Sequence record: OM386662.1
From: Escherichia phage vB_EcoM_ESCO47
Length of the DNA: 64,000 bases
Direction: 5' to 3' (one strand)
Part shown: piece after piece, positions 20,511 to 58,662 of the stretch
Numbering within the stretch: the stretch's first letter is position 1
Layout of the letters: each line of letters opens with the position of its first letter
Made by a program: the position numbers and the translations under genes
Notes under the pieces: generated by a model
Told to the model about the DNA's origin: nothing
Seen by the model: only the letters and a program-made list of their open reading frames with translations
Databases searched by the model: none

Positions 20511-20530
20511 ATGGGGACTTCGGTCCCCAT
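20511..20530 (+). other. C(UUCG)G tetraloop RNA hairpin
   Basis: ATGGGGAC-TTCG-GTCCCCAT directly after stop codon of ORF 19887-20507. Confidence 0.6.
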
Positions 20531-20568
20531 TAGGGGTCTATAACTTACTGAAAAAGTTGTTTACTTCT

Positions 20569-20608
20569 TCCCTAGATGTGTTACTATAGACCTATCAACA
20601 ACATGAGG
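20569..20608 (+). promoter_or_regulatory. T4-type early promoter
   Basis: GTTTAC ... TGTTACTAT ... CCTATCAA. Confidence 0.55.
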
Positions 20609-20616
20609 AGAATATT

Positions 20617-20922
20617 ATGAGTCTTTACACTGAACTGAATAAAAAAACTGAAGAATCTGCTGAAACTATTTTTAAAAACGTGCAAAAGCGTATTTTAGAA
20701 AAGATGTATAACGCTGCAGCTAAAGGTGAAAAATCTTGTCGGTTTCCGATGAGGTGTTCTTCTGATTTATGCGCAAATACTATTGAATGGTTGGAAAGTG
20801 AAGGTCTTACGGTAGAGAAAAACCCGGCGACTTCTATTGATGGCGAATCATATATTAGTATTTCTTGGGATAAACCACGTATGAATGAAGGACACTACAA
20901 GTTGTTAAGTTGGAAAAATTAA
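20617..20922 (+). CDS. Hypothetical protein
   Basis: 101-aa ORF with GAGGAG RBS and own early promoter. Confidence 0.5.
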   Translation: MSLYTELNKKTEESAETIFKNVQKRILEKMYNAAAKGEKSCRFPMRCSSDLCANTIEWLESEGLTVEKNPATSIDGESYISISWDKPRMNEGHYKLLSWKN

Positions 20923-20931
20923 AAATAATGA

Positions 20932-20970
20932 TGTATAAACACCAATGATGGTGATACTATAGACTTATCA
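20932..20970 (+). promoter_or_regulatory. T4-type early promoter (variant -35)
   Basis: GTATAAAC ... TGATACTAT ... CTTATCAA. Confidence 0.4.
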
Positions 20971-20989
20971 ACTACAGAGGAGAAACAAA

Positions 20990-21217
20990 ATGGCTAAAGT
21001 TAGTATTGATGTCGTTGATTATGAATACACAGAAGAAGTTATTCGCAACCGTCACCCTGAAGTTCGTATCGATTCAGTACAAGATTCCAAGTTCTGGACA
21101 ACTGAGCTTAATCTGAGTGGTCCTTATGAAGCTGTTAAGAAGTTCATGGTTGAAGAATACTGCGAAGGAATGCACCCGGAAGACGCCAAGTTTTATGTCA
21201 ATTTGATTAAAAAATAA
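20990..21217 (+). CDS. Hypothetical protein
   Basis: 75-aa ORF with GAGGAG RBS. Confidence 0.5.
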   Translation: MAKVSIDVVDYEYTEEVIRNRHPEVRIDSVQDSKFWTTELNLSGPYEAVKKFMVEEYCEGMHPEDAKFYVNLIKK

Positions 21218-21252
21218 TTTACAAACTCTTGAGAGCAGAGTATAATGCTCTC
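21218..21252 (+). promoter_or_regulatory. Sigma70-type promoter with -10 embedded in a palindrome
   Basis: TTTACA-N17-TATAAT; inverted repeat GAGAGCA / TGCTCTC brackets the -10. Confidence 0.5.
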
Positions 21253-21287
21253 ATTGGATAATAAACCACCAATTGAAAGGTAATAAT

Positions 21288-21881
21288 ATGAACACACTGA
21301 AGAAACTTGTTGAATTCATCCGCACTAAACTGGGTACTGCTATGGCTAAAAATCTTACTGTCGAAGAACAGTATAACGCAGCTGCAGATAAGTTGATTAC
21401 CCAAATCAAAGAACTAAAAACGGCTTCTGTTAAATCTATTAATGAAGAAAAACGTATTCGCGAACTTGTTAATGAAAAGAACAAGCAAGCCGCTTCTAAG
21501 GAACGTGAAATTCGTAAGCTCCTGGCTGAAGGACAGGATGTTACCATGCATGCTAAGCTTGGTCTTCTGTATCGTCGAACTGCCGAACAACTTAATACAA
21601 AAGCTGATGGGTATGCCGCTATGCGAATTGAAATTGCTCGTAAGGTGGTTGAACTTGACGATGCTCGTCAGAATCTGGCAATCAAACTCGAATACATTCG
21701 TGAAACTCGAGCAGCCAATGCCCTTGGTATCTCTACGGCTGATGATGTAATTGAAATCGCTGCACTGACTAAGGTTGATATCGAAGACACTCTGACTCGT
21801 GTTGAAACGTTCAATGGCTCTCCAGCTGGTGTCGAAACCACTTCTGCTGATGTACAAGAATATATTAACTCTTTGAAATAA
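21288..21881 (+). CDS. Hypothetical coiled-coil protein
   Basis: Start set at MNTLKK with GAAAGG RBS; long predicted helical/coiled-coil region. Confidence 0.5.
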
Positions 21882-21889
21882 AATAATAC

Positions 21890-21911
21890 GGAGGACTCCG
21901 GTCCTCCTTTT
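21890..21911 (+). terminator. Intrinsic terminator
   Basis: GGAGGAC-TCCG-GTCCTCC followed by TTTT. Confidence 0.65.
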
Positions 21912-21930
21912 GGATAATAAAGGAGTTAAC

Positions 21931-22533
21931 ATGCGAAACCAAAATAATGATATTGACTCAATGTTCGAAGAGTTCCGAGATAAGGTAAATCCACCTACGT
22001 CTTTAGTTGATTCATTACGATATGTTGCAACCGGACGTAAATGGTACTGGTCGTCTTCTTATGAGACCACCGAGAAAACGGCTAGCCATAGCAGAAAATC
22101 TTTATTAGCCCCAGGTATTATGATTCATGATATCGGAGCTATTGCTAAACTAGTTGCAGACCATGATATTAGATTCACTGATTTCGTTGCTCCTACGTGG
22201 TCTGTTTGTTGTTTAAACACTGAATGGGAATATATCAGCGAACGCTCTGAAGATTATTATGGTTTTAGAGATAAGCTTCTGAGGTCTAATATGTTTTATA
22301 TCGATACAGAAGTTCTAGTCGATAATAAAAAATATTACTTTACGTTAATCATCGATTCTGAAACTATGTATGAAGGCAAGCCTTTGCTTAAAAGAGTTGA
22401 TGCTTTAAGTGCTATTGATGCGCTTTATGAAACTATGGTTGTTAGTCCTAATTTCACTAACAATTTAATCCTTGAGCAATTTATTATGGAATGTAGAGAA
22501 TATGTCAAAGCCAACCCTGTACATGCCAATTAA
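21931..22533 (+). CDS. Hypothetical protein
   Basis: Start set at MRNQNND after AAGGAG RBS; follows terminator hairpin. Confidence 0.5.
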   Translation: MRNQNNDIDSMFEEFRDKVNPPTSLVDSLRYVATGRKWYWSSSYETTEKTASHSRKSLLAPGIMIHDIGAIAKLVADHDIRFTDFVAPTWSVCCLNTEWEYISERSEDYYGFRDKLLRSNMFYIDTEVLVDNKKYYFTLIIDSETMYEGKPLLKRVDALSAIDALYETMVVSPNFTNNLILEQFIMECREYVKANPVHAN

Positions 22534-22897
22534 GCCCTGGGCATATGAATACAAGCGTAAATTAATCCCAAATGAAGTACTATTTGGCCCTATTTTAGCT
22601 TTAGCATTTTTAATCTTTATGATTATAGGAGCCGTTTTAGATTCTAGTGAAGTTATATCGTCTGATGCAGCATTTTCATTAATGTTCGTCGCACCACTTA
22701 TTGTACCGTTTTTATTAATGCCTATTAACTGGATGGGATATTGGTACCAAGGACGTCATCACAGAGCCAGATTAAGAGAATGGAAAGTTCAGTGCGCAAA
22801 AGCCCAAGCTCAGTATGATGAAGCTGTTAAAAAATACGAATACAATGAAGCCATGGAATTCGTTAAGGAAATAAGATGCAAAAGCCTCAACTCTTAA
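22502..22897 (+). CDS. Small membrane protein, FIKECR-tail family
   Basis: Start MSKPTLYMP after conserved junction GGAATGTAGAGAATATG; two TM segments; C-terminal EFVKEIRCK. Confidence 0.45.
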   Translation: MSKPTLYMPIKPWAYEYKRKLIPNEVLFGPILALAFLIFMIIGAVLDSSEVISSDAAFSLMFVAPLIVPFLLMPINWMGYWYQGRHHRARLREWKVQCAKAQAQYDEAVKKYEYNEAMEFVKEIRCKSLNS

Positions 22898-23235
22898 CCG
22901 TATGGCCTTCTCTTGGTGAGAACATTCTAATTTTTATTATGAGTATTGGCATGGGATTTGCCTTTGGATTAGTTGGATTTCTTATTGACAGCGTTGTGTT
23001 AGGATTTATAGGGAACACTGGTGGATTCACAGACCAATGGCAGGACTTACGGTATACCCAAGCCTTTGCATCCATCGCATCATTTTGTACTGTAGTCTAT
23101 TTTTACTACGATTTTATAAACCACAACAAGAAAAATAAAAAGGTTTACGCTTCTCAAATGATTAGTTATAATGAACTCCTAGCTAGACGTGAAAATGAAA
23201 CAATCGAAAACTTTATTAAGGAATGTAGAAAATGA
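22876..23235 (+). CDS. Small membrane protein, FIKECR-tail family
   Basis: AAGGA RBS; TM segments; ends ENFIKECRK. Confidence 0.5.
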   Translation: MQKPQLLTVWPSLGENILIFIMSIGMGFAFGLVGFLIDSVVLGFIGNTGGFTDQWQDLRYTQAFASIASFCTVVYFYYDFINHNKKNKKVYASQMISYNELLARRENETIENFIKECRK

Positions 23236-23537
23236 GTAAGATTATTGAAATTAAAGTACCAGAGTTTAATGATGCCAAATCCGCTTCAGATGCAATTTAT
23301 AAACTTCTGAATCAAGCTGAACGTATCGAAGAAGAAGCAACAAAGATCGCAGACCAATATGCCGTATCATTTTCTGTAGGTGATTATGGTAGCGGTCGTA
23401 CTTATTATCCTAAGGGTGAAATCGTATCCCAGTGGATGAAAAATGAAATTGAAAATAATGGTGGCGATGTTAAGCGTGAAGGTAATGGTTACGTTATTAC
23501 TGAAGGTGCTTGGGTTTCGTCTTCTGCGTTGTGCTAA
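23232..23537 (+). CDS. Hypothetical protein, GWVSSSxxC-tail paralog 1
   Basis: ATGA coupling; C-terminus GAWVSSSALC shared with the next two genes. Confidence 0.5.
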   Translation: MSKIIEIKVPEFNDAKSASDAIYKLLNQAERIEEEATKIADQYAVSFSVGDYGSGRTYYPKGEIVSQWMKNEIENNGGDVKREGNGYVITEGAWVSSSALC

Positions 23538-23546
23538 GGAATCACT

Positions 23547-23819
23547 ATGTCTAAAGAACAAACCGAACTGGCTGAAGCTGTAGCAAAAATCTATGCATCT
23601 ATTGAGGCAGCCAAAGAAATTGCTGATAAACAAAACACCACGTTTAATTTGTATCCGGCATATGGTATGGGCGGAACCTATCATTCACCAGGTTATCTTA
23701 AAGCCGACCTTGAACATCATACTAAACATGGTAACCCTGAATGGGCTGACGTTTACCAATATGACTACAACCTGAGCCTTGAAGATGGCGGTTGGGTTGC
23801 ATCTTCTCACACTTGCTAA
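23547..23819 (+). CDS. Hypothetical protein, GWVSSSxxC-tail paralog 2
   Basis: AAGGA RBS; C-terminus GGWVASSHTC. Confidence 0.5.
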   Translation: MSKEQTELAEAVAKIYASIEAAKEIADKQNTTFNLYPAYGMGGTYHSPGYLKADLEHHTKHGNPEWADVYQYDYNLSLEDGGWVASSHTC

Positions 23820-23828
23820 GGAAACCAT

Positions 23829-24026
23829 ATGTCTCGTGAATTAGATTGTGCTGTACGTACGGCAGTAGCTGCTCTGGAAAACCTGTTCCAAATTGCAACA
23901 GAAGAACGCGAAGAAGTTACATTATGGATTGAAGATAACGCAGGTCTGAATCTCCAGGACGCGATTTCATTATCCCACAATAGTATTACTGTTCAAGGCT
24001 GGGTATCATCTAGTTATTCTTGCTAA
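23829..24026 (+). CDS. Hypothetical protein, GWVSSSxxC-tail paralog 3
   Basis: AAGGA RBS; C-terminus QGWVSSSYSC. Confidence 0.5.
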   Translation: MSRELDCAVRTAVAALENLFQIATEEREEVTLWIEDNAGLNLQDAISLSHNSITVQGWVSSSYSC

Positions 24027-24030
24027 AACA

Positions 24031-24072
24031 GTTTACAACAAGATAGGGCTATGTTATAGTAGTCCTATCAAA
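24031..24072 (+). promoter_or_regulatory. T4-type early promoter
   Basis: GTTTAC ... TGTTATAGT ... CCTATCAA. Confidence 0.55.
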
Positions 24073-24088
24073 TTAAATGGAGTCCACA

Positions 24089-24328
24089 ATGATTTATTAC
24101 GAAAGTATCGGAACCGAAGTAGTTGCTAAAACTATTACTCGTGAAAAGTTTGCAAAGATATTCGATATGCGTTATAAAAAATCTGAACACAAAGGCATCC
24201 GATTCAAAGATGCGCACTGTACAATTTGCCCTTATAATGAAGACATAAATGGTACAATCGTTCCATTGGTAGAGGCTTCACATGATGACCTCTGGGATGA
24301 ATATAATATCGCATGTCGTGAAATTTAA
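24089..24328 (+). CDS. Hypothetical protein
   Basis: Start set at MIYYESIG after early promoter. Confidence 0.45.
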   Translation: MIYYESIGTEVVAKTITREKFAKIFDMRYKKSEHKGIRFKDAHCTICPYNEDINGTIVPLVEASHDDLWDEYNIACREI

Positions 24329-24353
24329 GTAATCTAAATTCGAGGAAATTATT

Positions 24354-25310
24354 ATGATGTTAGTTATTGGTTCTCGTGCACTTCACTATCACGGTCTTAT
24401 TGATTCTAGCGCTATTAAAAATAGTGATTGGGACTTTATTGCGGATCAAGGTTCTTGGAATGCATTCAAAAATCAAATGATGGGTGTATATGTTCACCAA
24501 GATAACCCTGATGTCCAAGTTTTCAAATGCTTCCATAATGGACGCGAAACTCATTTTGAAGCATATATTGTTCCGGCAATCACTAATGTCCGTGAATTAG
24601 TCGGTGAACTCACTCCTGAAGATTTCACGTCTTCTTATGACCTTTTAAAATACGCCAGGAAAAATTTGACTAAAGACCGTTTGAACGGGTTTTACTGGGC
24701 AACTCCTGAGATATGTCTTGCAATTAAGATGTCTCATCGTTTCAAGAAAAATAATCCATTCTTTTTAAAGACTATGAACCATATTCAGTATCTTCGTGGT
24801 AAAGGTGTTACACCGAACGATGAACTTACTGAAATTATGCTGAAACGCCAGAAAGAAACCTTGAATTATGCTCACCCAGTTCTTGACACTTCTAAAAGTG
24901 CGTTCTTTAAAGATGACATCTATACATATGACCATGATACTATTCATGAAGCCATTGCACTAACAGACCGTCCAGCGTATACATTTTATATGAAAGACGG
25001 TTCTGAAGTCATGACCTCACGCGAGAAGTTCGAATTGTTACCAGAAATGGTCAAATTGGCCGGTGTATACGAAGAATCATGTGTACTAGCATTAGAACGT
25101 TCTCAGATTCCTAATGACTTTAAAATTAACCCTGAAGCCAGTTTCATGATGGCATTGGAAAAAGTCTGTACAAGCATCACCTCCGGTTGGTTCCGTGAGT
25201 ATGCCTGGGAAAACTACAGCAAAGTAGTAAGTATGTACCAAAGCTTAGGACATGATGATTACATCAAACGTTTCAAACAAAATTTCCATATGGTAAAACC
25301 TTTCAAATAA
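24354..25310 (+). CDS. Predicted nucleotidyltransferase-fold protein
   Basis: N-terminal GSRALHYHG...SDWDFIAD fits the minimal nucleotidyltransferase GS...DxD signature; GAGGA RBS. Confidence 0.5.
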   Translation: MMLVIGSRALHYHGLIDSSAIKNSDWDFIADQGSWNAFKNQMMGVYVHQDNPDVQVFKCFHNGRETHFEAYIVPAITNVRELVGELTPEDFTSSYDLLKYARKNLTKDRLNGFYWATPEICLAIKMSHRFKKNNPFFLKTMNHIQYLRGKGVTPNDELTEIMLKRQKETLNYAHPVLDTSKSAFFKDDIYTYDHDTIHEAIALTDRPAYTFYMKDGSEVMTSREKFELLPEMVKLAGVYEESCVLALERSQIPNDFKINPEASFMMALEKVCTSITSGWFREYAWENYSKVVSMYQSLGHDDYIKRFKQNFHMVKPFK

Positions 25311-25322
25311 CTTCACAAAACT

Positions 25323-25363
25323 GTTTACAACATGATAGGACTATGTTATAGTAGTCCTATTAA
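25323..25363 (+). promoter_or_regulatory. T4-type early promoter
   Basis: GTTTAC ... TGTTATAGT ... CCTATTAA. Confidence 0.55.
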
Positions 25364-25380
25364 AACATGAGGAGAATATT

Positions 25381-25686
25381 ATGAAATTAGGCGAAACCAA
25401 CCGAATTGGCCTTTTAACAATATTTGCATCACCTTTTTACGCAGCCCTTTCTGTTGCAGTATTACAAAAGGCTTACGATATGGATGGTGTTCCTGGTTTT
25501 GTATTCTTATCACCGTTTTTATTATTCGTCGGAGCATTGTTATTATATGCAACTACCGGTTTAGACCATAATGTCTGGGTCAATTATAAATGTAAATTGT
25601 CTGAAGAAGAACACGCAGAAGCTCGTAAAAAAACTATTGAATCTACCAATCTAGAAAATTTCATTAAAGAATGTCGAGGAAAATAA
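25381..25686 (+). CDS. Small membrane protein, FIKECR-tail family
   Basis: GAGGAG RBS; TM segments; ends ENFIKECRGK. Confidence 0.5.
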   Translation: MKLGETNRIGLLTIFASPFYAALSVAVLQKAYDMDGVPGFVFLSPFLLFVGALLLYATTGLDHNVWVNYKCKLSEEEHAEARKKTIESTNLENFIKECRGK

Positions 25687-25687
25687 T

Positions 25688-26374
25688 ATGAATAGTTCTA
25701 AAGTGTTTAATAGTCAAGCTCGTGCAGTAGGTGGTTTTGCTCATGCGATTAAAAACGGCCAAATTAAAAACGAGACTATGTTCTTTAACTGCGATTTGAA
25801 TTTTGCTTTTGATAATGGCGGCCCAATTACTCGTAGCTTTATCCAAAATCTTCCTGACGATTGGAAAGACTCGGATGTAGTATTTGATTCACGAGTCCAC
25901 ATGCTGATGCCTGGTTGGTATCCTGCTATCCCAGGTTATCACCATGACGATGTACCACGCCCTGATATTCCAGTTGGTCAACACTTTATTACTGCAGGAC
26001 AACCTGACTATGACAATCCTCGCTATTTGTCTGAACATATTCTTGGACTTGTTAACGCTGATGTGTGTCCTACTCATTTTGCAACAGGAACTGCAGAGTT
26101 CAGTCAGATTCCTGATGGCGAACTTATCTATCGTCAGTGGCACAAAGAAGTCCTCGAAAAAATCGAAAAAGGTGAACTAGAGAAATGGGAAGCTCCAGAT
26201 CGTACTCTTCTTCAGTTTGATTGGCAAACATGGCACACTGGTTCTCGTGCAATTAGTAACGGATGGCGTTGGTTCGGACGTGTATCTCGTAATACAGACC
26301 GAGTTAAAAAGATTACCAATGAAATTCGTGTCAATGCTCAAGTTTATCTGGAATTCCCTATGGAAGGCTGGTAA
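25688..26374 (+). CDS. Hypothetical protein
   Basis: 228-aa ORF with GAGGA RBS; no confident domain. Confidence 0.5.
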   Translation: MNSSKVFNSQARAVGGFAHAIKNGQIKNETMFFNCDLNFAFDNGGPITRSFIQNLPDDWKDSDVVFDSRVHMLMPGWYPAIPGYHHDDVPRPDIPVGQHFITAGQPDYDNPRYLSEHILGLVNADVCPTHFATGTAEFSQIPDGELIYRQWHKEVLEKIEKGELEKWEAPDRTLLQFDWQTWHTGSRAISNGWRWFGRVSRNTDRVKKITNEIRVNAQVYLEFPMEGW

Positions 26375-26865
26375 TGATTAACAAAACATATTGGTCTAAT
26401 ATTGACGACGGCAATGAAGGTATTTCGTACTATTCAGTAGATTGGACAGGATGTCCATCCTACTTAGTGAAACGTATTTGCCAAGAATTTAAAATCAACC
26501 AGCCAGCAGGTATTATCGTGAACAGATACATTAATGGATATCAACCTATCGATGAAGTAATACGAACAACTCAAGCTGATCTTGAAAAGTTTTTCAATAA
26601 GTGCCAATGGATAACAGGATGGATTATATTTGTACCGTCGGTATGGTTTTTCAGTACTAAGGTGAGTTCTTTCGGTTTTGTTGATATTATCGCTATCTTA
26701 TTAGCATCTACTATTGTAAGTGTTGTTGGTGGCATCATTGGCGGCGGTACCGCCGCCATCATTATTAATCTTATTAAAAGTAGTTTACAAGAACATAAAG
26801 ACAAGATAAAAGCCAAGAATAATGAAGTTGAACGTTTTATTACCGAATGCAGGAATTTGAGATGA
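26374..26865 (+). CDS. Membrane protein, FIKECR-tail family
   Basis: TAATG coupling; Gly-rich TM segments; ends ERFITECRNLR. Confidence 0.5.
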   Translation: MINKTYWSNIDDGNEGISYYSVDWTGCPSYLVKRICQEFKINQPAGIIVNRYINGYQPIDEVIRTTQADLEKFFNKCQWITGWIIFVPSVWFFSTKVSSFGFVDIIAILLASTIVSVVGGIIGGGTAAIIINLIKSSLQEHKDKIKAKNNEVERFITECRNLR

Positions 26866-27546: not shown

Positions 27547-27553
27547 TTAATAA

Positions 27554-29902: not shown

Positions 29903-30442
29903 ATGAGAACATTTTTAACCGGACCTTATCTATCCCTGATGAATGCTTTTACACACCATTCTGATGCTAGAGTAGAAGAAATTTGTAAGAACGGTTATAT
30001 CCCACCATTTGAAGACGTACTCAAGCAGTACTGTACACTTCGTTTAGACGGTGGCAGACAATCAGGTAAATCAACTGCAGTAACTAATTTTGCCGCTAAT
30101 TGGCTGTACGACGGTGGAACAGTTATTGTTCTTTCTAATACTTCAGCTTATGCTAAAATTTCTGCTGGCAACATTGAAAAAGAATTTTCTCGTTATTCTA
30201 GCGATGATATTCGATTCCGTTTATTTACTGATTCTGTCCGTAGTTTTATTGGCAATGAAGGTTCTAAATTCCGTGGATTAACGCTTTCTCGTATTCTGTA
30301 TATAATTGACGAGCCTATTAAAGCTCCTGATATGGATAAGATTTACAATGCCCATATTAAAACAGTACAGCACTGCTGCAAAAGCAAATATTGCATCGGC
30401 GGTATTGCTCGTCCTCAATTTTTTGTGATAGGAATGCAATGA
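29903..30442 (+). CDS. P-loop NTPase-like hypothetical protein
   Basis: Walker A-like GGRQSGKST; start set at MRTFLTG with AGAGAG RBS. Confidence 0.5.
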   Translation: MRTFLTGPYLSLMNAFTHHSDARVEEICKNGYIPPFEDVLKQYCTLRLDGGRQSGKSTAVTNFAANWLYDGGTVIVLSNTSAYAKISAGNIEKEFSRYSSDDIRFRLFTDSVRSFIGNEGSKFRGLTLSRILYIIDEPIKAPDMDKIYNAHIKTVQHCCKSKYCIGGIARPQFFVIGMQ

Positions 30443-31267: not shown

Positions 31268-31307
31268 GTTTACTTCTCCTCTAGTTGTGTTACTATAGAC
31301 CTGTCAA
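31268..31307 (+). promoter_or_regulatory. T4-type early promoter (regB)
   Basis: GTTTAC ... TGTTACTAT ... CCTGTCAA. Confidence 0.55.
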
Positions 31308-34893: not shown

Positions 34894-34922
34894 AAGTCCC
34901 TTCCGAAAGGTTGGGACTTTTT
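34894..34922 (+). terminator. Intrinsic terminator after rI
   Basis: AAGTCCC-TTCCGAAAGGTT-GGGACTT followed by TTTT; same loop as terminator at 19814. Confidence 0.7.
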
Positions 34923-34933: not shown

Positions 34934-34974
34934 GTTTACATCTCGGTAAAATGGTGTTATAGTAGTCCTATCAA
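34934..34974 (+). promoter_or_regulatory. T4-type early promoter
   Basis: GTTTAC ... TGTTATAGT ... CCTATCAA. Confidence 0.55.
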
Positions 34975-37332: not shown

Positions 37333-37614
37333 ATGAAAAAATTAGTAATTGGTTTATTTGCAGTAATGATGGCGTTCTCTGTTGGTGCTACCACGGGTGC
37401 TACCAGCGGTAGTGCAGGCGCTGGTGGTAACCAGTCTTCTGGGCCTTCCAATGGTTCGGTAAATGCGTCACATTCTCAGGGTATTGAGAACATTAAATCA
37501 AGCTATATTAATAGCACGGCCGGACAAGCAACTGAAGCATGGTCAAAGGGTCGAGTAGTTACTCGCTCCGTATTCTGTGATATGCCTAATTATGTTGCTA
37601 AGTGCGATAAGTAA
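37333..37614 (+). CDS. Secreted Gly/Ser-rich protein
   Basis: Signal peptide MKKLVIGLFAVMMAFSVGA; GAGG RBS. Confidence 0.5.
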   Translation: MKKLVIGLFAVMMAFSVGATTGATSGSAGAGGNQSSGPSNGSVNASHSQGIENIKSSYINSTAGQATEAWSKGRVVTRSVFCDMPNYVAKCDK

Positions 37615-37618: not shown

Positions 37619-37638
37619 GGGGACCTTCGGGTCCCTTT
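37619..37638 (+). other. C(UUCG)G tetraloop RNA hairpin
   Basis: GGGGACC-TTCG-GGTCCC followed by TTT, after ORF 37333-37614. Confidence 0.6.
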
Positions 37639-37666
37639 AGGGGGTTAAAATATTTTTAAAAAAGTA

Positions 37667-37704
37667 GTGTACATGCTTTTAGGATATGTTATTATAGACC
37701 TATC
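37667..37704 (+). promoter_or_regulatory. Early/middle promoter (variant)
   Basis: GTGTACATGCTTTT ... TGTTATTAT ... CCTATCGAA. Confidence 0.35.
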
Positions 37705-37733: not shown

Positions 37734-38714
37734 ATGTTCAACGTTCAAATCAAAAAAGGTATCTATCGTAATAACGAAATCTCTGGTTCTTATGTCGCCA
37801 CAAAGACCTGGTTCCCGGCAAAGCTTAATCCTGAGTGTTCTCACCTCGGTGATGGTAAAGTTTTCATTATGATTGATGGTTCTGAACGTGGAGTATGGGT
37901 CTTTAAATCAGATATCGTTATGGAAGGAGTTGAGACCTCTCCAGTTACAGTTGTTGAAAGCAACGAAGACATGAAAACTCGTATCAATAAACGCTTTAAA
38001 GTAATGAATATGATGACGAATGGCATTATCAATGGCAAAATTCGTTCACTCATTATTTCAGGTGCAGCTGGTATTGGTAAAACGTATTCTCTGGATAAAG
38101 CACTTAATAACGCTAATGATAATGGTTTCATCAAATACAAAAGCATTAATGGTAAAATCTCTGGTATTGGCCTTTACGAACAACTTTGGCTCAACCGTGA
38201 TGCAGACAGCGTTCTCTTAATCGACGACGTTGATGTATTCTCAGATATGGACATCTTGAACCTTCTTAAAGCAGCATTAGATACTGGTGATAAACGCAAA
38301 GTTTGTTGGAGCACTGCGTCATCTTATCTCGATGATAAGGGTATTGATAAAGAATTTGAGTTTGAAGGTACTATCGTTTTCATTACAAACGTTGATATCG
38401 ATAAAGAGTTAGAACGCGGTTCGAAACTTGCTCCACACCTTCAGGCTTTAGTATCTCGTTCAGTGTATCTTGACCTTGGAGTACACTCTAATGAAGAGAT
38501 TATGGTTCGAGTTGAAGATGTAATATTATCTACTGACATGATGCAGAAACGTGGTCTGACTGATGCAGAAACGTATAAAGCATTATCTTGGATGAAGGCT
38601 AACGTATCTCGTCTTCGCAATGTATCATTACGTACGGCTCTTTATGTAGCAGATTTTATTTCAACTGATAAAGATGGTTGGGAGGAAATCTCTGAAGTAA
38701 CTTTACTGAAATAA
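37734..38714 (+). CDS. AAA+/P-loop ATPase
   Basis: Walker A ISGAAGIGKT, Walker B VLLIDDVD; start set at ATG 37734 with GGAG RBS. Confidence 0.6.
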   Translation: MFNVQIKKGIYRNNEISGSYVATKTWFPAKLNPECSHLGDGKVFIMIDGSERGVWVFKSDIVMEGVETSPVTVVESNEDMKTRINKRFKVMNMMTNGIINGKIRSLIISGAAGIGKTYSLDKALNNANDNGFIKYKSINGKISGIGLYEQLWLNRDADSVLLIDDVDVFSDMDILNLLKAALDTGDKRKVCWSTASSYLDDKGIDKEFEFEGTIVFITNVDIDKELERGSKLAPHLQALVSRSVYLDLGVHSNEEIMVRVEDVILSTDMMQKRGLTDAETYKALSWMKANVSRLRNVSLRTALYVADFISTDKDGWEEISEVTLLK

Positions 38715-39142: not shown

Positions 39143-39182
39143 GTTTACAAGGTCTATGGTTATGTTATTATAGACCTATCAA
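39143..39182 (+). promoter_or_regulatory. T4-type early promoter
   Basis: GTTTAC ... TGTTATTAT ... CCTATCAA. Confidence 0.55.
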
Positions 39183-51258: not shown

Positions 51259-51266
51259 ATAATTTA

Positions 51267-51293
51267 AAGGAAGCACTAGTGCTTCCTTTTTTT
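51267..51293 (+). terminator. Intrinsic terminator
   Basis: AGGAAGCAC-TA-GTGCTTCCT palindrome followed by TTTTTTT. Confidence 0.7.
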
Positions 51294-51341: not shown

Positions 51342-52361
51342 ATGAAAATTTTGCAATTAGGTGACTTCCATATCGGGGTCAAACAAGACGACCCATGGGT
51401 TCAAGATATTCAGCGTGACGGCATTCGACAAGCAATTGAGTATTCTAAGAAAAACGGAATTAACACATGGATTCAATATGGTGATTGGTTTGATGTCCGT
51501 AAAGCAATAACACATCGCACAATGGAATTTAACCGTGAACTGGTCAACATGATTACTAAAGCTGGTATTCGTGTCCATGTAACTATCGGGAATCATGACA
51601 TTGCGTTCAAGAATACAATAACACCAAATACGGTTTCTGAACTACTTACCCAATTTGAAAACTTTACAATCTATGAACATCCAACTACAGTAGATTTCGA
51701 CGGTTGTCTTATTGATATTATTCCATGGATGTGTGAAGAGAATACAGGCGAAATCTTAGAACATATCAAAACGAGTTCAGCCGCGTATTGTGTTGGGCAC
51801 TGGGAACTGAATGGCTTTTATTTCTATAAAGGAATGAAGTCTCATGGGCTTGAACCTGATTTCTTAAAGACTTATAAACAAGTCTGGTCCGGCCACTTCC
51901 ACACAATCTCTGAAGCTGCTAACGTCAAATATATTGGGACACCATGGACCCTTACTGCAGGTGATGAGAATGATCCTCGCGGATTCTGGGTATTTGACAC
52001 TGATGTTGAACGTATGGAATTTATTCCTAATGAAACAACATGGCATCGACGAATCACTTATCCGTTTAAAGGCAAAATCAATTATTCTGATTATACTAAT
52101 CTAGCCGTACGTGTTATAGTATCAGAAATTGATTCAGAGTTGACTAAGTTTGAATCTGAACTTGAAAAAGTAGTTCACTCTCTTCGTATGGTTTCTAAAG
52201 TTGATAACAGTGTTGAATCTGATGACGACCAGGAAATCGAGATTAAATCACTTCAAGATATCATTAAAGAATATATTGACGCGATTCCAGATATCTCGGA
52301 CGAAGACAGAGAAGCGCTGGTCAAATATTCCAACGAACTTTATATTGAGGCAACACAATGA
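51342..52361 (+). CDS. 47: Recombination endonuclease subunit gp47 (Mre11-like)
   Basis: MKILQLGDFHIGVKQDDPWVQ...; phosphoesterase motifs GDxHxG, GNHD; 339 aa as T4 gp47. Confidence 0.95.
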   Translation: MKILQLGDFHIGVKQDDPWVQDIQRDGIRQAIEYSKKNGINTWIQYGDWFDVRKAITHRTMEFNRELVNMITKAGIRVHVTIGNHDIAFKNTITPNTVSELLTQFENFTIYEHPTTVDFDGCLIDIIPWMCEENTGEILEHIKTSSAAYCVGHWELNGFYFYKGMKSHGLEPDFLKTYKQVWSGHFHTISEAANVKYIGTPWTLTAGDENDPRGFWVFDTDVERMEFIPNETTWHRRITYPFKGKINYSDYTNLAVRVIVSEIDSELTKFESELEKVVHSLRMVSKVDNSVESDDDQEIEIKSLQDIIKEYIDAIPDISDEDREALVKYSNELYIEATQ

Positions 52362-52615
52362 CTTTAGATGAATTTAACAATGCTGGACTCAGGCTTGAAG
52401 TTGAAATGGACGTTAAAGATGATGATGGATTCGAGAACACTATCAAGTATTGGATTGAGCCATTACGCGTTGAAGGCAATGAAGTTAAAGCAGTTCATGT
52501 CTGCACCGACTGGGCTATTGAATTTAGCTTTAATATAATGGACGACGATACTCCTGGCTCTATTCTTAAAATGGCTGAAGCATGTATCAAGGATGCGTAT
52601 AATGACGAAGACTGA
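52358..52615 (+). CDS. Hypothetical protein (T4 46.2 position)
   Basis: 85-aa ATGA-coupled ORF. Confidence 0.45.
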   Translation: MTLDEFNNAGLRLEVEMDVKDDDGFENTIKYWIEPLRVEGNEVKAVHVCTDWAIEFSFNIMDDDTPGSILKMAEACIKDAYNDED

Positions 52616-52841
52616 TTATGAAATCCATCGTCATGAATTTAGTATTGATGACGGTTATATTGGTGTCGTTGAATGGACTGAGAATTACGAGGAGACAACT
52701 CCTCGTTTCTTTGGAACAATGTATGTTACCTGTGAGTACGCACCGGGTGTTGTTATGTATGCAGAACTAGATGAATATTTTGCTGATAGAGATGACATGT
52801 TAAAATATGTAGAGGACTTCATTCGAAGAGAATACATATGA
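52593..52841 (+). CDS. Hypothetical protein (T4 46.1 position)
   Basis: 82-aa ORF with AAGGA RBS. Confidence 0.45.
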   Translation: MRIMTKTDYEIHRHEFSIDDGYIGVVEWTENYEETTPRFFGTMYVTCEYAPGVVMYAELDEYFADRDDMLKYVEDFIRREYI

Positions 52842-54526
52842 AATCATTTAAATTAAATCGTGTTCGTTATAAAAATATAATGTCTGTTGGGCAAAATTTT
52901 ATCGATATCCAATTAGATAAAGTCCAAAAGACCTTAATCACAGGTAAAAATGGTGGTGGTAAATCTACGATGTTAGAAGCCATCACTTTTGGACTTTTCG
53001 GCAAACCATTTCGTGATGTTAAGAAAGGACAAATCATTAATAGCACGAACAAGAAAGAGCTCTTAGTTGAGCTTTGGATGGAATTCGATGATAAAAAATA
53101 CTTCATCAAACGAGGTCAAAAGCCCAATATTTTCGAAATCTCCGTTGACGGTGTTCGTCTCGATGAATCTGCCAGCAGTCGTGACTTCCAAGAAGAATTT
53201 GAACGTAGCATCGGAATGTCCTATGCGTCTTTTAAACAAATCGTCGTTCTTGGTACAGCAGGGTATACCCCTTTCATGGCTCTTAGCACCCCAGCTCGTA
53301 GAAAACTTGTCGAAGACCTTTTAGAAGTCGGCACACTCGCTGAAATGGATAAAATCAATAAGTCTCAAGTTCGCGAACTTAATTCCCGGGGGCAAGTTCT
53401 CGATGCCAAGAAAGATGGTGTTATCCAACAAATTAAGATTTATAATGAGAATATCGAACGTCAAAAGAAATTATCCGGTGATAATGTAGCTCGTCTACAG
53501 AATATGTATGATGACCTGGCTAAAGAAGCTCGGTCATTAAAAGCAGAAATCGAAGAAGCTAATGAGCGACTACTTAATATCGTTCTTGACGAAGACCCTA
53601 CTGAGGCATTCAACAAGATAGGACAAGAAGCATTATTGATTAAATCTAAAATTGACTCATATAACAAAGTTATTAAGATGTATCATGACGGCGGTACATG
53701 TCCTACTTGTGCATCACAGTTGCACCAGGGTGATCCTATTGTCTCTAAGATTACCGATAAGCTTCATGAATGTAATCACTCATTCGAGCAACTTACCTGT
53801 CACAGAGATAATCTGAGTGTCCTAGTGGACGAATATAGAGCTAATGTTAAGACTAAACAGGACCTTGCATCTGATATTCGTACCAAGAAACAAGCAATGA
53901 TTGCCACTATTGATAAAGCTAAGAAAGTTAAAGCTGCAATAGAGCAAGCCTCAGCAGAATTTATCGACCATGCCGATGAGATAGCTTTGCTTCAAAAAGA
54001 ACTTGATAAAATCATTAAAACAAAATCGGATATCGTTCTTGAAAAATACCATCGTGGTATTATCACAGATATGTTAAAAGATTCTGGTATTAAAGGTGCT
54101 ATCATTAAAAAATATGTGCCTCTGTTCAACAAGCAGATTAACCATTACCTTAAAATCATGGAAGCTGATTACGTGTTTTCTATTGATGAAGAATTCAATG
54201 AATCTATAAAATCCCGTGGTCGTGAAGATTTTAGTTATGCTTCATTTAGCCAAGGTGAAAAAGCACGTATTGATATCGCTTTATTGTTCACATGGCGAGA
54301 TATTGCTGAAAAGGTTTCTGGTGTTAGAATCAATACATTAATTATGGACGAAGTCATGGATTCCGCGACTGATTCTGAAGGTATTAAAGCTATTTCAACA
54401 ATTCTTAACTCTCTAACCGATGCAAACGTGTTTATAATTAGTCACAGAGACCATGACCCACAAGCTTATGGACAACATCTTCAAATGAGCAAAGTTGGAC
54501 GATTTACTGTAATGAAAGCCTCTTAA
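52838..54526 (+). CDS. 46: Recombination endonuclease subunit gp46 (Rad50/SbcC-like ATPase)
   Basis: Walker A GKNGGGKST, long coiled coil with CPTC zinc hook, signature SQGEKARIDIAL, Walker B LIMDEV; 562 aa. Confidence 0.95.
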   Translation: MKSFKLNRVRYKNIMSVGQNFIDIQLDKVQKTLITGKNGGGKSTMLEAITFGLFGKPFRDVKKGQIINSTNKKELLVELWMEFDDKKYFIKRGQKPNIFEISVDGVRLDESASSRDFQEEFERSIGMSYASFKQIVVLGTAGYTPFMALSTPARRKLVEDLLEVGTLAEMDKINKSQVRELNSRGQVLDAKKDGVIQQIKIYNENIERQKKLSGDNVARLQNMYDDLAKEARSLKAEIEEANERLLNIVLDEDPTEAFNKIGQEALLIKSKIDSYNKVIKMYHDGGTCPTCASQLHQGDPIVSKITDKLHECNHSFEQLTCHRDNLSVLVDEYRANVKTKQDLASDIRTKKQAMIATIDKAKKVKAAIEQASAEFIDHADEIALLQKELDKIIKTKSDIVLEKYHRGIITDMLKDSGIKGAIIKKYVPLFNKQINHYLKIMEADYVFSIDEEFNESIKSRGREDFSYASFSQGEKARIDIALLFTWRDIAEKVSGVRINTLIMDEVMDSATDSEGIKAISTILNSLTDANVFIISHRDHDPQAYGQHLQMSKVGRFTVMKAS

Positions 54527-55239
54527 TGAGGCTTATGTTTACAGTTATCAAAATGCCAACGATGCATATTAGCAGGGATCCCTATTTTATCGCAATGAGG
54601 ACATTTAATTTTCTTGTCCTCTTTTTTCTTTCTGTTAGGATTTGATTTACAGAATTTTATATGCGGCTTTAACGCCGATAACTTAGTAGTTAAGCCACAA
54701 AACGGGCAAGAATCTTCTTTCCAAATTTTCGTGGCCATGGTTTTAATTATTTTATCCTTTGTTTCTTGATCAAGTTTTACTATTTTAGGCGTAGGGCCTT
54801 GTTTACAGTTATCAAAATGCCAACGTCTCATGTTTCCTTCAGTGCCAGTTAAACCGCAGTGTGGACATGTAATCTTTGGTTTATTTTTTGCAGACTCGGA
54901 CATTTTCTTACGAGTTTCAGCAGTGAATTCTTTGTTCTTTTGAACTTCTTGATTCTTACGTCGAAGCCATCCAAATAATTTGTTTTTGCTTCTATCTGCT
55001 TTAGGAGATGAGATAGTCATCATACGAGCAGCATATATTAAAGAGGCATTATCTGGATGGATTTTTACTAGCAGTTGATGTGCCAAATAATGTTCTTCTG
55101 GTGTTAAATCTACTAAGTTTAAAGCATCATCACTTCCACCTAAACATTGTGGTATAATGTAATGACGTTCTGTATAACCATCTAAACTTCTTGATTTAGC
55201 ATTGGTGATAAGCTTTTCGTATATTGAGTTATAATTCAT
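54523..55239 (-). CDS. Free-standing HNH homing-endonuclease-like protein with triple zinc-finger repeats
   Basis: N-terminal HNH-like ERHYIIPQCLGGSDDALNLVDLTPEEHYLAH; three CPHCG...WHFDNCK repeats; opposite strand to neighbours; AAGGA RBS. Confidence 0.7.
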   Translation of the reverse strand: MNYNSIYEKLITNAKSRSLDGYTERHYIIPQCLGGSDDALNLVDLTPEEHYLAHQLLVKIHPDNASLIYAARMMTISSPKADRSKNKLFGWLRRKNQEVQKNKEFTAETRKKMSESAKNKPKITCPHCGLTGTEGNMRRWHFDNCKQGPTPKIVKLDQETKDKIIKTMATKIWKEDSCPFCGLTTKLSALKPHIKFCKSNPNRKKKEDKKIKCPHCDKIGIPANMHRWHFDNCKHKPH

Positions 55240-55284
55240 TTACTAAATCCTTATTTGATACAGCAACAGATAAATTGATAAACC

Positions 55285-55292
55285 TATTTATA
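55285..55292 (-). promoter_or_regulatory. T4 late promoter (HNH endonuclease gene)
   Basis: TATAAATA on minus strand 46 nt upstream of the HNH gene start. Confidence 0.5.
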
Positions 55293-55318
55293 TTGCTTTA
55301 AACACGGAGATTTATAAT
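55293..55318 (+). promoter_or_regulatory. MotA-dependent middle promoter candidate (45.2/rpbA/45)
   Basis: TTGCTTTA, 12 bp, -10 TATAAT. Confidence 0.4.
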
Positions 55319-55508
55319 GGCTGAATTTTCAACCGGACAACAACTTCTAGCTGTTCCAGAAATTAAAAAATATGTTCTGACTAATACCTTTTCAGGTGAA
55401 GAACATATTGTTACTGAAGAAATGCTCAAAAATGCTTTTAAAAATGAGTATTATAAAATAATGTCTAATCGTTCAAATGCTTTTATTGTTAGCGACTACT
55501 ATGACTAA
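55317..55508 (+). CDS. Conserved hypothetical protein (T4 45.2 position)
   Basis: 63-aa ORF; synteny. Confidence 0.5.
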   Translation: MAEFSTGQQLLAVPEIKKYVLTNTFSGEEHIVTEEMLKNAFKNEYYKIMSNRSNAFIVSDYYD

Positions 55509-55521
55509 AGAGAGAAATAAT

Positions 55522-55938
55522 ATGTTTACTACTGCTAAAGGTTTTACTGCTGCTGATCTGAAAGTTACTTCTATTCGTACTGACGCTAACCCACATAACC
55601 GGAATCGTGTTCGTAAAGCATGGGTCCTGCATTGTGATGATGTAAGCGCTAAGAAACTTCAGTCTCTGCCACAAGAAATTAAATTCATGCTGTATGGTTT
55701 CATTGATAATGATGTTTCCGATAAGTGGATCGAACTAATGCGCAAACATCGTGAAAATGCTATCGCAGCTGGTGGTAAAATGATTCTAGATAAAGATGGT
55801 TCAGAACGATTGGAAGACTTCTATTGTGTAGACTCAAATGACCAACTTATTGCAGCCGGTGAAATTGTAGCTGCTAAGATTCCAGAATATATTGAAACAC
55901 TGCCTGAAGCTATTAAAAAGCAAATGGTTGCTGCATAA
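55522..55938 (+). CDS. rpbA: RNA polymerase binding protein RpbA
   Basis: Position immediately upstream of gene 45 as in T4; start set at MFTTAKG with AAGAGAG RBS. Confidence 0.55.
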   Translation: MFTTAKGFTAADLKVTSIRTDANPHNRNRVRKAWVLHCDDVSAKKLQSLPQEIKFMLYGFIDNDVSDKWIELMRKHRENAIAAGGKMILDKDGSERLEDFYCVDSNDQLIAAGEIVAAKIPEYIETLPEAIKKQMVAA

Positions 55939-55987
55939 TATTTTTGATATAAAATAAACTTCTTGATTTGAATTGAAAGGAAATAAA

Positions 55988-56674
55988 ATGAAACTGACTA
56001 AAGACACCATCGCTATTCTTAAAAACTTTGCTTCCATTAACTCTGGTGTCATGCTTACTCCAGGTAAGTTTATTATGACTCGGGCTATTAACGGAACCAC
56101 ATATGCTGAAGCAACTATTACTGACGAAATTGATTTTGAAGTTGCTCTTTATGACCTTAACAGTTTTTTAAGTATTCTGAGTCTTGTTTCTGATGATGCA
56201 GAAATTTCTATGAATGAAGACGGTAATATTAAAATCGCCGACACTCGTTCTACTGTTTACTGGCCAGCCGCAGACAAGAGTACAATCGTATTCCCTAACA
56301 AACCAATTCAGTTCCCGGTAGCATCGGTTATCACTGAAATTAAAGCTGAAGACCTTCAGCAATTGCTTCGAGTTTCACGTGGACTCCAGATCGATACAAT
56401 TGCTATCACTAATAAAGATGGTAAAATCGTTGTAAATGGTTATAACAAAGTTGAAGACTCTGGTCTTACTCGTCCTAAGTATTCTTTGACTCTGACTGAT
56501 TATGATGGTTCTAATAACTTCAACTTTGTAATCAATATGGCTAACATGAAAATTCAACCAGGCAATTACAAAGTTATGCTCTGGGGAGCTGGTGATAAAG
56601 TTGCAGCCAAGTTCGAAAGCTCTCAAGTTAGTTATGTTATTGCAATGGAAGCTGATTCCACTCACGATTTCTAA
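55988..56674 (+). CDS. 45: Sliding clamp gp45
   Basis: MKLTKDTIAILKNFASINSGVMLTPGKFIMTRAINGTTYAEA... matches recalled T4 gp45; 228 aa. Confidence 0.95.
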   Translation: MKLTKDTIAILKNFASINSGVMLTPGKFIMTRAINGTTYAEATITDEIDFEVALYDLNSFLSILSLVSDDAEISMNEDGNIKIADTRSTVYWPAADKSTIVFPNKPIQFPVASVITEIKAEDLQQLLRVSRGLQIDTIAITNKDGKIVVNGYNKVEDSGLTRPKYSLTLTDYDGSNNFNFVINMANMKIQPGNYKVMLWGAGDKVAAKFESSQVSYVIAMEADSTHDF

Positions 56675-56700
56675 GCTTTACGTTTAATATGTTATGATTT

Positions 56701-56723
56701 GGAGGAGAAATCCTCCACTTTTT
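56701..56723 (+). terminator. Hairpin plus T-run between genes 45 and 44 (attenuator candidate)
   Basis: GGAGGA-GAAA-TCCTCC followed by ACTTTTTG. Confidence 0.5.
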
Positions 56724-56741
56724 GATAATGAGGAAAATTAT

Positions 56742-57704
56742 ATGATTACCATCAATTCCAAAGAACACATTCTAGAACAGAAATATCGTCCTTCTTCCAT
56801 TGACGAATGTATTCTGCCTGCGTATGACCATGAAACATTCAAGTCTTTAGTATCTAAAGGAAAACTTCCTCATATTATTTTGCACTCTCCTTCTCCTGGC
56901 ACAGGTAAAACAACCGTAGCAAAAGCATTATGTAATGATATCAATGCAGAAATGATGTTCGTCAACGGTTCTGATTGTAAGATTGATTTTGTGCGTGGCC
57001 CGTTAACTGCATTCGCTCGTTCAGTCTCAATGGAAGGCAAGCCTAAAGTTATTGTTATTGATGAATTTGACCGTAGTGGCCTCGCCGAATCACAACGTCA
57101 CCTTCGTACGTTTATGGAAGAATTCTCTAGTAACTGCTCTATTGTTATTACTGCTAACAACATCGATGGAATTATTGAACCATTACGTAGTCGTTGTCGA
57201 GTTATCGAATTCGGACGTCCAACCGAAGAAGATAAAATCTCAATGATGAAGAAAATGATTCATCGTATGGTTGAAATCTGTAAGAATGAAAATATCGAAA
57301 TCGCTGATATGAAAGTTGTTGCAGCTCTGGTTAAAAAGAACTTCCCGGACTTTCGTCGTACAATCGGTCAATTAGACCAGTACTCGTCTAAAGGTGTTCT
57401 TGATGCTGGTATTTTGTCTATCGTAACTAATGACCGTGGCACGGTCTCTGATGTTATCGAAGCAATGAAGAACAAAGATATCAAACAGCTTCGTGCATTA
57501 GCTCCAAAATACGCTGCAGATTATTCATGGTTCATCGATAAATTAGTTTCAGAATGTTATGACCAAGTTGCACCTGGTAAAAGTATTATTTCGCTTTATG
57601 AAATCGCAGGCGAAAATAATAAGTTTCATGGATTAGCAAGTAATATTGAATTACATGTTATGTATATGCTTCTTCAACTGACCTGTGAACTGACTTGGAA
57701 ATAA
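56742..57704 (+). CDS. 44: Clamp loader large subunit gp44
   Basis: Walker [15 protein letters not shown] Walker B, SRC motif LRSRC; start set at [11 protein letters not shown]. Confidence 0.95.
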
Positions 57705-57705
57705 T

Positions 57706-58269
57706 ATGAACTTATTCGATGATGACGTCCGGCTTAACGAGCACCAAATTGCATGGAAGTCTAATGACGCTGATGCGATTCAAAAATGTGCTGATATGTT
57801 TAAAGAAAAACCTGAGAATGAATTCTTTAAAATCATTAATGCTATTAATGAAAAGAAATCTATGTCAATTGCTCAGGTCGACTACTCAAAATTTATGGTT
57901 GAGAACTCATTATCCCAGTTCCCAGAATGTATGCCAGCTGTTTACATGATGAACTTAGTCGGTTCTGAATTAAGTGATGAAGCGCACTTCAACTATATGA
58001 TGGCGGCAATTCCGCGCGGTCGTCGATTCTCTAAATGGGCTAAACTAGTCGAAGACACTTCAGAGTTACTAGTTATCAAACTGTTGATGAAACATTACAC
58101 AATCAACATGAATGATGCTACAGAGTATAAGCGGCTCCTTGAAAAAAATAACAAGTTGCCAATAGTCCTTAAAGAACTGAAGGCCATGGTCACTGATGAA
58201 TTTCTCAAAGAAGTTACCAAAAACGTGAAAGAACAAAAACAATTTAAAAAAATAGCATTGGAATGGTAA
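57706..58269 (+). CDS. 62: Clamp loader small subunit gp62
   Basis: 187 aa as T4 gp62; coupled to gene 44. Confidence 0.9.
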
Positions 58270-58271
58270 AA

Positions 58272-58640
58272 ATGATTGAAATTAAATTGAAGAACCCTGA
58301 AGATTTTCTGAAAGTCAAAGAGACTTTGACCCGTATGGGCATCGCTAATAACAAGGATAAAGTCCTTTACCAGTCTTGTCATATCCTCCAAAAGCAAGGT
58401 AAGTATTATATCGTCCACTTTAAAGAAATGTTGCGTATGGATGGACGTCAGGTTGATATTGACGGTGAAGACTATCAGCGACGTGATTCGATTGCCCAGT
58501 TGCTTGAAGACTGGGGATTGATTGTTATTGAAGACTCTGCTCGTGAAGATCTATTTAGCCTGACTAATAACTTCCGAGTTATCTCTTTTAAACAGAAAGA
58601 TGACTGGACTTTGAAAGCAAAATATACAATTGGTAATTAA
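58272..58640 (+). CDS. regA: Translational repressor RegA
   Basis: MIEIKLKNPEDFLKVKETLTRMGIANNKDKVLYQSCHILQKQGKYYIVHFKEMLRMDGRQV matches recalled T4 RegA; 122 aa. Confidence 0.9.
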   Translation: MIEIKLKNPEDFLKVKETLTRMGIANNKDKVLYQSCHILQKQGKYYIVHFKEMLRMDGRQVDIDGEDYQRRDSIAQLLEDWGLIVIEDSAREDLFSLTNNFRVISFKQKDDWTLKAKYTIGN

Positions 58641-58644
58641 AGCA

Positions 58645-58662
58645 ATGGGACTTCGGTCCCAT
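58645..58662 (+). other. C(UUCG)G tetraloop RNA hairpin
   Basis: ATGGGAC-TTCG-GTCCCAT directly after regA stop, upstream of gene 43. Confidence 0.6.

Follow-up and report, generated by a model that had tools for sequence, protein, structure and literature searches.

T4-type C(UUCG)G hairpins at gene ends of a Mosigvirus genome segment, probable leaky terminators coupled to promoters

Tetraloop hairpins directly behind genes

We analyzed a stretch of 64,000 nucleotides (nt) from Escherichia phage vB_EcoM_ESCO47 (sequence record OM386662.1; hereafter called the window), in which short hairpins with a C(UUCG)G tetraloop stand immediately 3' of genes. A 2-kb probe around the first of these hairpins matched 726 phage records, the top ones belonging to the genus Mosigvirus (ST0, mar005P1, JS09, HX01, and G2469; ~95–97% identity), and by this similarity the source is an RB69-like, T4-type coliphage of that genus. 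PHROG scans identified gp8 and gp9 on the minus strand, and RegA (58263–58640) and the 903-amino-acid DNA polymerase gp43 (58723–61434) on the plus strand. These identities indicate that the first 13.8 kb hold late baseplate genes on the minus strand and that the remainder consists of early and middle genes on the plus strand.

A preliminary description of this DNA had listed three hairpins located directly after genes, with stems that differ while the UUCG loop and its closing C-G pair stay constant, and with no strong U-run behind them. All three are present and have these properties. H1 (AAUGGGGAC-UUCG-GUCCCCAUU; 20510–20531, plus strand, with the GC core at 20513–20528) begins 3 nt past the stop codon (20505–20507) of a gene for a 206-amino-acid protein (19887–20507, plus strand). 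H2 (GGGACC-UUCG-GGUCCC; 37620–37635, plus strand) begins 5 nt past the stop codon (37612–37614) of a gene for a 93-amino-acid protein (37333–37614, plus strand), and H3 (AAUGGGAC-UUCG-GUCCCAUU; 58644–58663, plus strand) lies between regA, whose stop codon (58638–58640) it follows after 4 nt, and gene 43. Their predicted free energies are −15.5, −13.9, and −13.1 kcal/mol, respectively, with stability z-scores of −1.4 to −2.6 relative to shuffles of 45–48-nt segments; sequence and predicted energy thus both agree with the earlier assignment to the hyperstable C(UUCG)G motif. The 8 nt past the GC cores (H1, AUUAGGGG; H2, UUUAGGGG; H3, AUUUGGAG) contain only two, three, and three U. The H1 tail (20529–20536, plus strand) is a short interrupted U-run followed by a G-run, and the H2 tail reads UUUAGGGGG (37636–37644, plus strand).

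A fourth C(UUCG)G hairpin, absent from the preliminary description, was found 5 nt past the gp8 stop codon (GGGAGCC-UUCG-GGCUCCC; 4625–4608, minus strand). It has a predicted free energy of −15.5 kcal/mol and continues into GUUUUUG (4601–4607); with six U in 8 nt, it has the U-tract of an intrinsic terminator (about five or more U in eight). A late promoter for gp9, TATAAATA (4596–4589, minus strand), lies downstream of it. All four hairpins are on the sense strand of their flanking genes, 3–5 nt past stop codons, and a promoter follows each of them: an early promoter at H1 and H2, the −10 element of the gene 43 promoter P43 at H3, and the late TATAAATA at gp8/9. In 2,000 dinucleotide-preserving shuffles of the window, C(UUCG)G hairpins with at least five Watson–Crick pairs occurred 0.068 times on average and at most twice, compared with four in the actual sequence, which rules out a chance origin. 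When the window was scanned with Rfam, only three transfer RNAs (tRNAs) reached the gathering score, and the hairpins matched no known Rfam family.

H1 and H2 belong to paralogous terminator/early-promoter cassettes

H1 and H2 resemble the PeSLs (promoter-early stem-loops), composite terminator/promoter cassettes of T4-like phages for which both activities were demonstrated by reporter assay in RB49/phi1 (PMC2839356, PMC4122927). In a lacZ assay, one PeSL stem-loop terminated as well as rrnB T1 (PMC2839356). The succession of elements that defines these cassettes, namely a stem-loop, an AT-rich region, a sigma70-like early promoter, a Shine–Dalgarno (SD) sequence, and a start codon, is found at H1 and H2, but not at H3, behind which only a −10 element of the middle-promoter type was seen. 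Downstream of H1, an early sigma70-type promoter (TTTACT, 16 nt, TGn-TACTAT; 20560–20587, plus strand) is followed by AGACCTATC, the SD sequence GAGGAG, and an ATG at 20617. This promoter fits the T4-group PeSL consensus TTTACW...TAYWAT, published as TTTACW-N17-TAYWAT (PMC4122927). The early promoter downstream of H2 (TGTACA, 16 nt, TGn-TATTAT; 37668–37695, plus strand) is preceded by an AT-rich, UP-like stretch and followed by the conserved AGACCTATC; it drives an nrdC.11-like gene, whose probable start is the ATG at 37734 after GGAG.

The two cassettes can be aligned with each other over ~110 nt, from the stop context TAAGTAAA via the hairpin, TTAGGGG, AAAAAGTnGTnTAC, and TGTTAYTATAGACCTATC through to the promoter. 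Based on this alignment, H1 and H2 are two paralogous copies of a PeSL cassette, and the occurrence of mutually similar copies within one genome is itself a PeSL characteristic. Both may be situated at junctions whose neighboring genes vary between phages. Many database phages match the window from exactly the H2 hairpin onward, with a different gene upstream (also seen in the fetched loci L269–L285), which fits the role proposed for PeSLs as module junctions (PMC2839356, PMC4122927).

Several differences from the published PeSLs were noted. Such cassettes have been described for RB49/phi1, T4/PST, and KVP40/nt-1, but not for the RB69 group (Arbiol 2010, PMC2839356; Comeau 2014, PMC4122927), which can now be added to the groups that carry PeSL-type cassettes. 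The published T4-group stem consensus is looser (AGNA-loop-TCNT). Moreover, most early promoters of the window (e.g., those at 17340, 24032, 25324, and 39144) have no stem-loop, H3 is paired with a middle-type promoter, and the gp8/9 hairpin is paired with a late one. The window has a family of highly similar early promoters (GTTTACA...TGTTAYTATAG(T/A)(A/C)(G/C)TCCTATC or AGACCTATC), with examples at 17340–17368, 24032–24060, 25324–25352, 31270–31300, 34935–34963, and 39144–39171 on the plus strand.

H3 is the ortholog of the T4 regA–gene 43 hairpin

H3 is identical in RB69, and a hairpin occupies the same place in T4, where the regA–43 region reads TAAGC-AAGGGGC-UUCG-GCCCCUU-AUUUGGAGUAUAAU and continues into the gp43 operator. 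By these matches, H3 is the ortholog of the T4 regA–gene 43 intercistronic hairpin. Correspondingly, it is preceded by the regA stop codon and followed, after 5 nt, by the −10 element of the gene 43 promoter (TATAAT, 58669–58674), with the gp43 translational operator further downstream. The MotA-dependent middle promoter P43 of T4 starts at 29933 (PMC2988021), a few nucleotides past the homologous TATAAT. The operator hairpin itself, AGAC-AAUAACUC-GUCU (58693–58708, plus strand), is of the 16-nt RB69 type, with a loop identical to that of the T4 operator. Directly 3' of H3, and overlapping the −10 TATAAT, is the sequence GGAGUAUAAUG (58665–58675, plus strand), which agrees with the RegB/S1 cleavage consensus GGAGRAYARAA (PMC1702504) at nine of 11 positions. 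This putative RegB site would provide a concrete route to a processed 3' end at H3.

The short spacer that separates the regA stop codon from the hairpin, AAGCAA (58639–58647; T4 29966–29973), is retained in diverse phages despite the variable stem. In reverse complement, it reads ATTGCTTTA, a MotA-box-like sequence with TATATT 11 nt downstream on the minus strand. The conservation of the spacer may simply reflect a coding constraint at the end of regA.

Position and pairing are conserved while stems change

Orthologous loci were fetched via RegA, gp8, and the nrdC.11-like protein. Each of these loci that has the same gene junction also has a tetraloop hairpin at the same place, with stems as diverse as GGGAC, GGGGC, GGAGCC, GGGCC, GGACCC, GGAGAC, GCCACC, and GGGACUCC, among others. 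At gp8/gp9, 99.4% of the alignment cells are paired and all seven pairs have changed on both sides (25 unique sequences); at regA/43, pairing amounts to 100% of cells, with six of seven pairs changed on both sides (12 unique sequences). The percentages are partly a product of construction, as the 20-mers compared were centered on the best hairpin picked for each ortholog. The informative point, to judge by these alignments, is that such a hairpin recurs, with a different stem, in nearly all orthologs that share the gene junction. Of 57 unique orthologs, 37 have a UUCG loop; the remainder have UACG, UCCG, UUUG, GAAA, GCAA, GAGA, UGAG, CAUG, or one of a few further sequences. At least five U in the next 8 nt were counted in 24 of 32 unique sequences at gp8/9, five of nine upstream of nrdC.11, and five of 16 at regA/43.

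For H1, covariation was assessed from two JS98-like sequences and G2469, as IMG/VR relatives of the proteins flanking H1 and H2 yielded few loci. The JS98-like phages have GGAGAC-UU(C/U)G-GUCUCC-UUUUAGGGGG, which includes a compensatory G-C to A-U change in the stem, and in G2469 the hairpin is the same as H1 and is followed by UUUAGGGGG. The H2 orthologs show covarying stems, many of them with U6 runs, and a VR25-like phage has a textbook terminator at this position (AAAGGACCC-UUCG-GGGUCCUUUUUUAUUUU). The 14-nt core GGGACUUCGGUCCC also occurs in at least 120 unrelated IMG/VR contigs, where 85 of 125 occurrences are followed by at least five U in 8 nt. By this distribution, it is a generic hairpin that has arisen time and again and whose normal function is that of a terminator hairpin. 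Taken together, the elements are conserved, covarying sense-strand RNA hairpins at gene ends, orthologous or paralogous to those of T4 and physically coupled to promoters.

Comparison with T4 hairpins and intrinsic terminators

The UUCG tetraloop was discovered in 1988 in T4 mRNA (Tuerk et al, 1988, as summarized in PMC4371310), and intergenic terminator structures of this phage often contain it (PMC1702504). In a census of the whole T4 genome, we counted 20 UUCG hairpins with a stem length of 5 bp or more; ~13 of them are of the C(UUCG)G type, located between genes and on the sense strand. About half of these ~13 have a run of five or more U (after soc, nrdC.11, rI.-1, gene 23, hoc, and 30.9), and the remainder have a short or interrupted U-run followed by a MotA box or a −10 element (39.1/39, regA/43, a-gt/47.1, mobB, and e.6/e.5). 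The window matches T4 both in this mixture of tail types and in density, with four hairpins per 64 kb compared with ~13 per 169 kb. Loop, closing C-G pair, short GC stem, sense orientation, and location just past a stop codon are likewise shared. The stem sequences differ, and the U-tract is 1–2 U shorter in the window than in T4 (UUAUUU) or some relatives (UUUUU), but none of these differences is essential.

In T4 terminators, a GC-rich stem with a 4-nt loop is followed by poly(U); one with a weak U-tract (mobE) stops ~30% of transcripts (PMC2988022). The gp8/9 hairpin and a UCCG variant of the window (described below) are of the canonical intrinsic type, unlike H1–H3. The latter resemble it in their GC-rich stem and tetraloop, in standing where a transcription unit ends, and in their flanks, which are A-rich on the 5' side and contain U on the 3' side; they differ in having only two or three U in 8 nt, fewer than the five or so expected, followed by G-rich sequence, and would be weak.

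Intercistronic C(UUCG)G hairpins and PeSL cassettes are thus an already known class, and the finding is an ordinary one; since the T4 examples are the textbook origin of the UUCG tetraloop, its import goes little beyond correct annotation. The analysis marks transcription-unit boundaries in this Mosigvirus segment and documents that position and pairing are kept across T4-like phages while the stem, and sometimes the loop, changes.

H1–H3 as probable leaky terminators

Based on these results, H1–H3 are T4-type intercistronic C(UUCG)G hairpins that mark transcription-unit ends and form the upstream halves of terminator–promoter cassettes; the presence of hairpins at the orthologous sites and the covariation of their stems bear out this membership. 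Given their weak U-runs, they most likely act as leaky terminators that also block 3' exonucleases. The nascent RNA would fold at once into a very stable short hairpin, at which, with two or three U following, the E. coli RNA polymerase would pause and a fraction of the complexes would terminate. Such an attenuator would partly insulate the downstream, promoter-driven unit while letting some read-through pass, and an RNA ending at the hairpin, whether by termination or by cleavage just downstream, would be shielded from 3'-to-5' exonucleases. We propose that UUCG is the favored loop because, in an AT-rich genome, a stem of only 5–7 bp folds fast with it and attains maximal stability. Leakiness may be of use at regA/43, since gene 43 transcripts are made early (PMC3014915) and the promoter directly upstream is only of the middle type.

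The preliminary description had interpreted the hairpins as mRNA stability or processing elements rather than terminators. The first part of this interpretation is plausible, with a barrier to 3' exonucleases and a RegB-like site at H3, and termination and stabilization are not mutually exclusive. The second part is unsupported: Orthologs mostly have 5–7 U, the core GGGACUUCGGUCCC mostly precedes a U-run in unrelated contigs, GenBank OL960577 lists H2 as a rho-independent terminator (by computation, with WebGeSTer and TransTermHP), and T4 terminators are known from the literature to combine a GC stem, a 4-nt loop, and poly(U), often with UUCG (PMC2988022, PMC1702504). The preliminary description also overlooked that each hairpin forms the first half of a terminator–promoter cassette and that such hairpins are the classic T4 case.

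Several observations weigh against leaky termination. The two or three U past the GC cores of H1–H3 give way to G-rich sequence (AUUAGGGG, UUUAGGGGG, and AUUUGGAG); by the usual rules, poor U-runs make for inefficient canonical terminators, and a G-rich tail forms a stable RNA:DNA hybrid that releases the transcript poorly. A consensus terminator scan called none of the three on the plus strand, and record MK327934, in which terminators are annotated, includes neither H1 nor H3. Five other strong intergenic hairpins of the window (at 4608, 19814, 21890, 34895, and 51266) have proper U-runs, so the phage is able to make canonical terminators, yet has not done so at H1–H3. A literature search for Term-seq or other 3'-end mapping data on T4 turned up none. 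The transcripts of the T4 45–43 cluster were reportedly mapped by Hsu and Karam in 1990 (cited in PMC2988021).

The scan did call the minus-strand reading of H1 and H3, which has the better T-run but a loop that reads CGAA. We rejected these antisense terminators because UUCG is strictly on the sense strand here and in T4, which argues for the sense RNA as the selected form.

Alternative roles

The strongest alternative is that the hairpins act purely at the RNA level, as the preliminary description had it: The polymerase would read through, an endonuclease (RegB at GGAG, or RNase E where the RNA is AU-rich) would cut downstream, and exonucleases would trim back to the UUCG hairpin, which then guards the upstream message. 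We regard this as a considerably less likely account, though a serious one. The weak U-runs and G-rich tracts at H1–H3 are consistent with it, as are the tails of the non-terminator-like form UUU(A/C)GGG on 14 of 57 orthologous hairpins and the decay of T4 mRNA from its 3' end by the host enzymes RNase II, RNase R, and PNPase. H3 is the best case, as GGAGUAUAAUG stands directly behind its stem and RegB processing has been reported to stimulate gp43 synthesis (PMC3014915). On the other hand, neither GGAG nor GGAU is found near H1 or H2, and RegB spares structured intergenic GGAG sequences and acts mainly at SD sequences (PMC1702504). Canonical U-runs on most orthologs and on most unrelated copies of the same hairpin also speak for termination, and stabilization competes with the leaky-terminator reading only if termination is denied altogether, as both roles can coexist.

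The tail deserves separate consideration, as it is the sole part of the finding with any potential for novelty. Directly after tetraloop hairpins, UUU(A/C)GGG(G) takes the place of the U-run at four separate loci and across several lineages of T4-like phages. It is present at H1 (20529–20536; UUUAGGGGG in G2469), at H2 (37636–37644), and in the 14 of 57 unique orthologs mentioned above, from RB69/JS98-like and ~175-kb T4-like phages (fetched loci L085/86, L228, L230–236, L262, L272–278, and L016/17/27). Weak pairing between the G-run and the C-rich 3' arm is possible. At gp8/9 and regA/43, the G-run directly adjoins a promoter −10 element or TATAAATA box, and in H1 and H2 it is followed by the late-promoter-like sequences TATAACTT and TTAAAATA. 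That the hairpins with this tail, including H1 and H2, constitute a distinct element and not ordinary terminators seems doubtful to us; they might serve as a dedicated signal for pausing, processing, or stability, or as a switch based on pairing of the G-run with the C-rich 3' arm.

An unlikely alternative places the main role at the level of DNA, with the hairpin–promoter cassettes serving as homology patches for modular gene shuffling among T4-like genomes by PeSL-mediated recombination and the RNA hairpin being secondary. The ~110-nt similarity of H1 and H2 and the many phages that share sequence from exactly the H2 hairpin behind different genes would suit this role, and PeSL mini-circle junctions were mapped within or beside the stem-loop (PMC2839356). 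However, ortholog stems are not conserved in sequence but covary, which indicates that structure, of RNA or DNA, is under selection and not sequence homology; UUCG is found on the sense strand throughout, which points to selection acting on RNA; and H3 and the gp8/9 hairpin are located in conserved core regions, not in hyperplastic ones. Finally, it is very improbable that the hairpin sequence is a promoter element and the palindrome incidental: In T4, the P43 start at 29933 does place the GCTTC of stem and loop at −30 of this MotA-dependent promoter, but it is replaced by ACTTC in the window and RB69 and by GAGTTCG, CCGAAAGG, or CCTACGG in other orthologs, so that the GCTT core of a MotA box is present in T4 but not conserved while pairing is kept in 100% of cells. 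Moreover, H1, H2, and the gp8/9 hairpin are located well ahead of the promoters that follow them.

Further hairpins and features of the window

A UNCG variant with a UCCG loop, also absent from the preliminary description, is located between an e.6-like and an e.5-like gene (GGAGGAC-UCCG-GUCCUCC, then UUUUGG; 21890–21907, plus strand). It has a predicted free energy of −14.4 kcal/mol and five U in 8 nt, as expected of an intrinsic terminator, and is annotated as a terminator in MK327934. Gene order and size suggest that the two flanking genes correspond to T4 e.6 and e.5, whose junction has AGGGGC-UUCG-GCCCCU.

Two paralogous terminators have a GAAA tetraloop (AG(C/U)CCC-UU-CC-GAAA-GG-UU-GGG(G/A)CU; 19814–19837 and 34895–34918, plus strand), and both contain a UU/UU internal loop and are followed by U5–6. 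The first comes after a cluster of three tRNA genes (Rfam RF00005; 19419–19649, plus strand) and ahead of TATAAATA (19844–19851), and the second precedes an early promoter. A GAAA loop is also found in the hairpin UGGAGGA-GAAA-UCCUCCA (56700–56717, plus strand), just within the start of gene 44 (ATG at 56694).

Upstream of gp47, the hairpin AAAGGAAGCA-CUAG-UGCUUCCUUU with a U-run (51266–51289, plus strand) is directly followed by the MotA-box-like UUUGCUUUC and TAGAAT. By its sequence elements, it can be assigned to the terminator/middle-promoter cassettes of the "PmSL" type. Lastly, the early region of the plus strand contains, between gp46 and rpbA/45, a 238-amino-acid open reading frame of opposite orientation (54523–55239, minus strand), possibly a mobile insertion such as a homing endonuclease gene.

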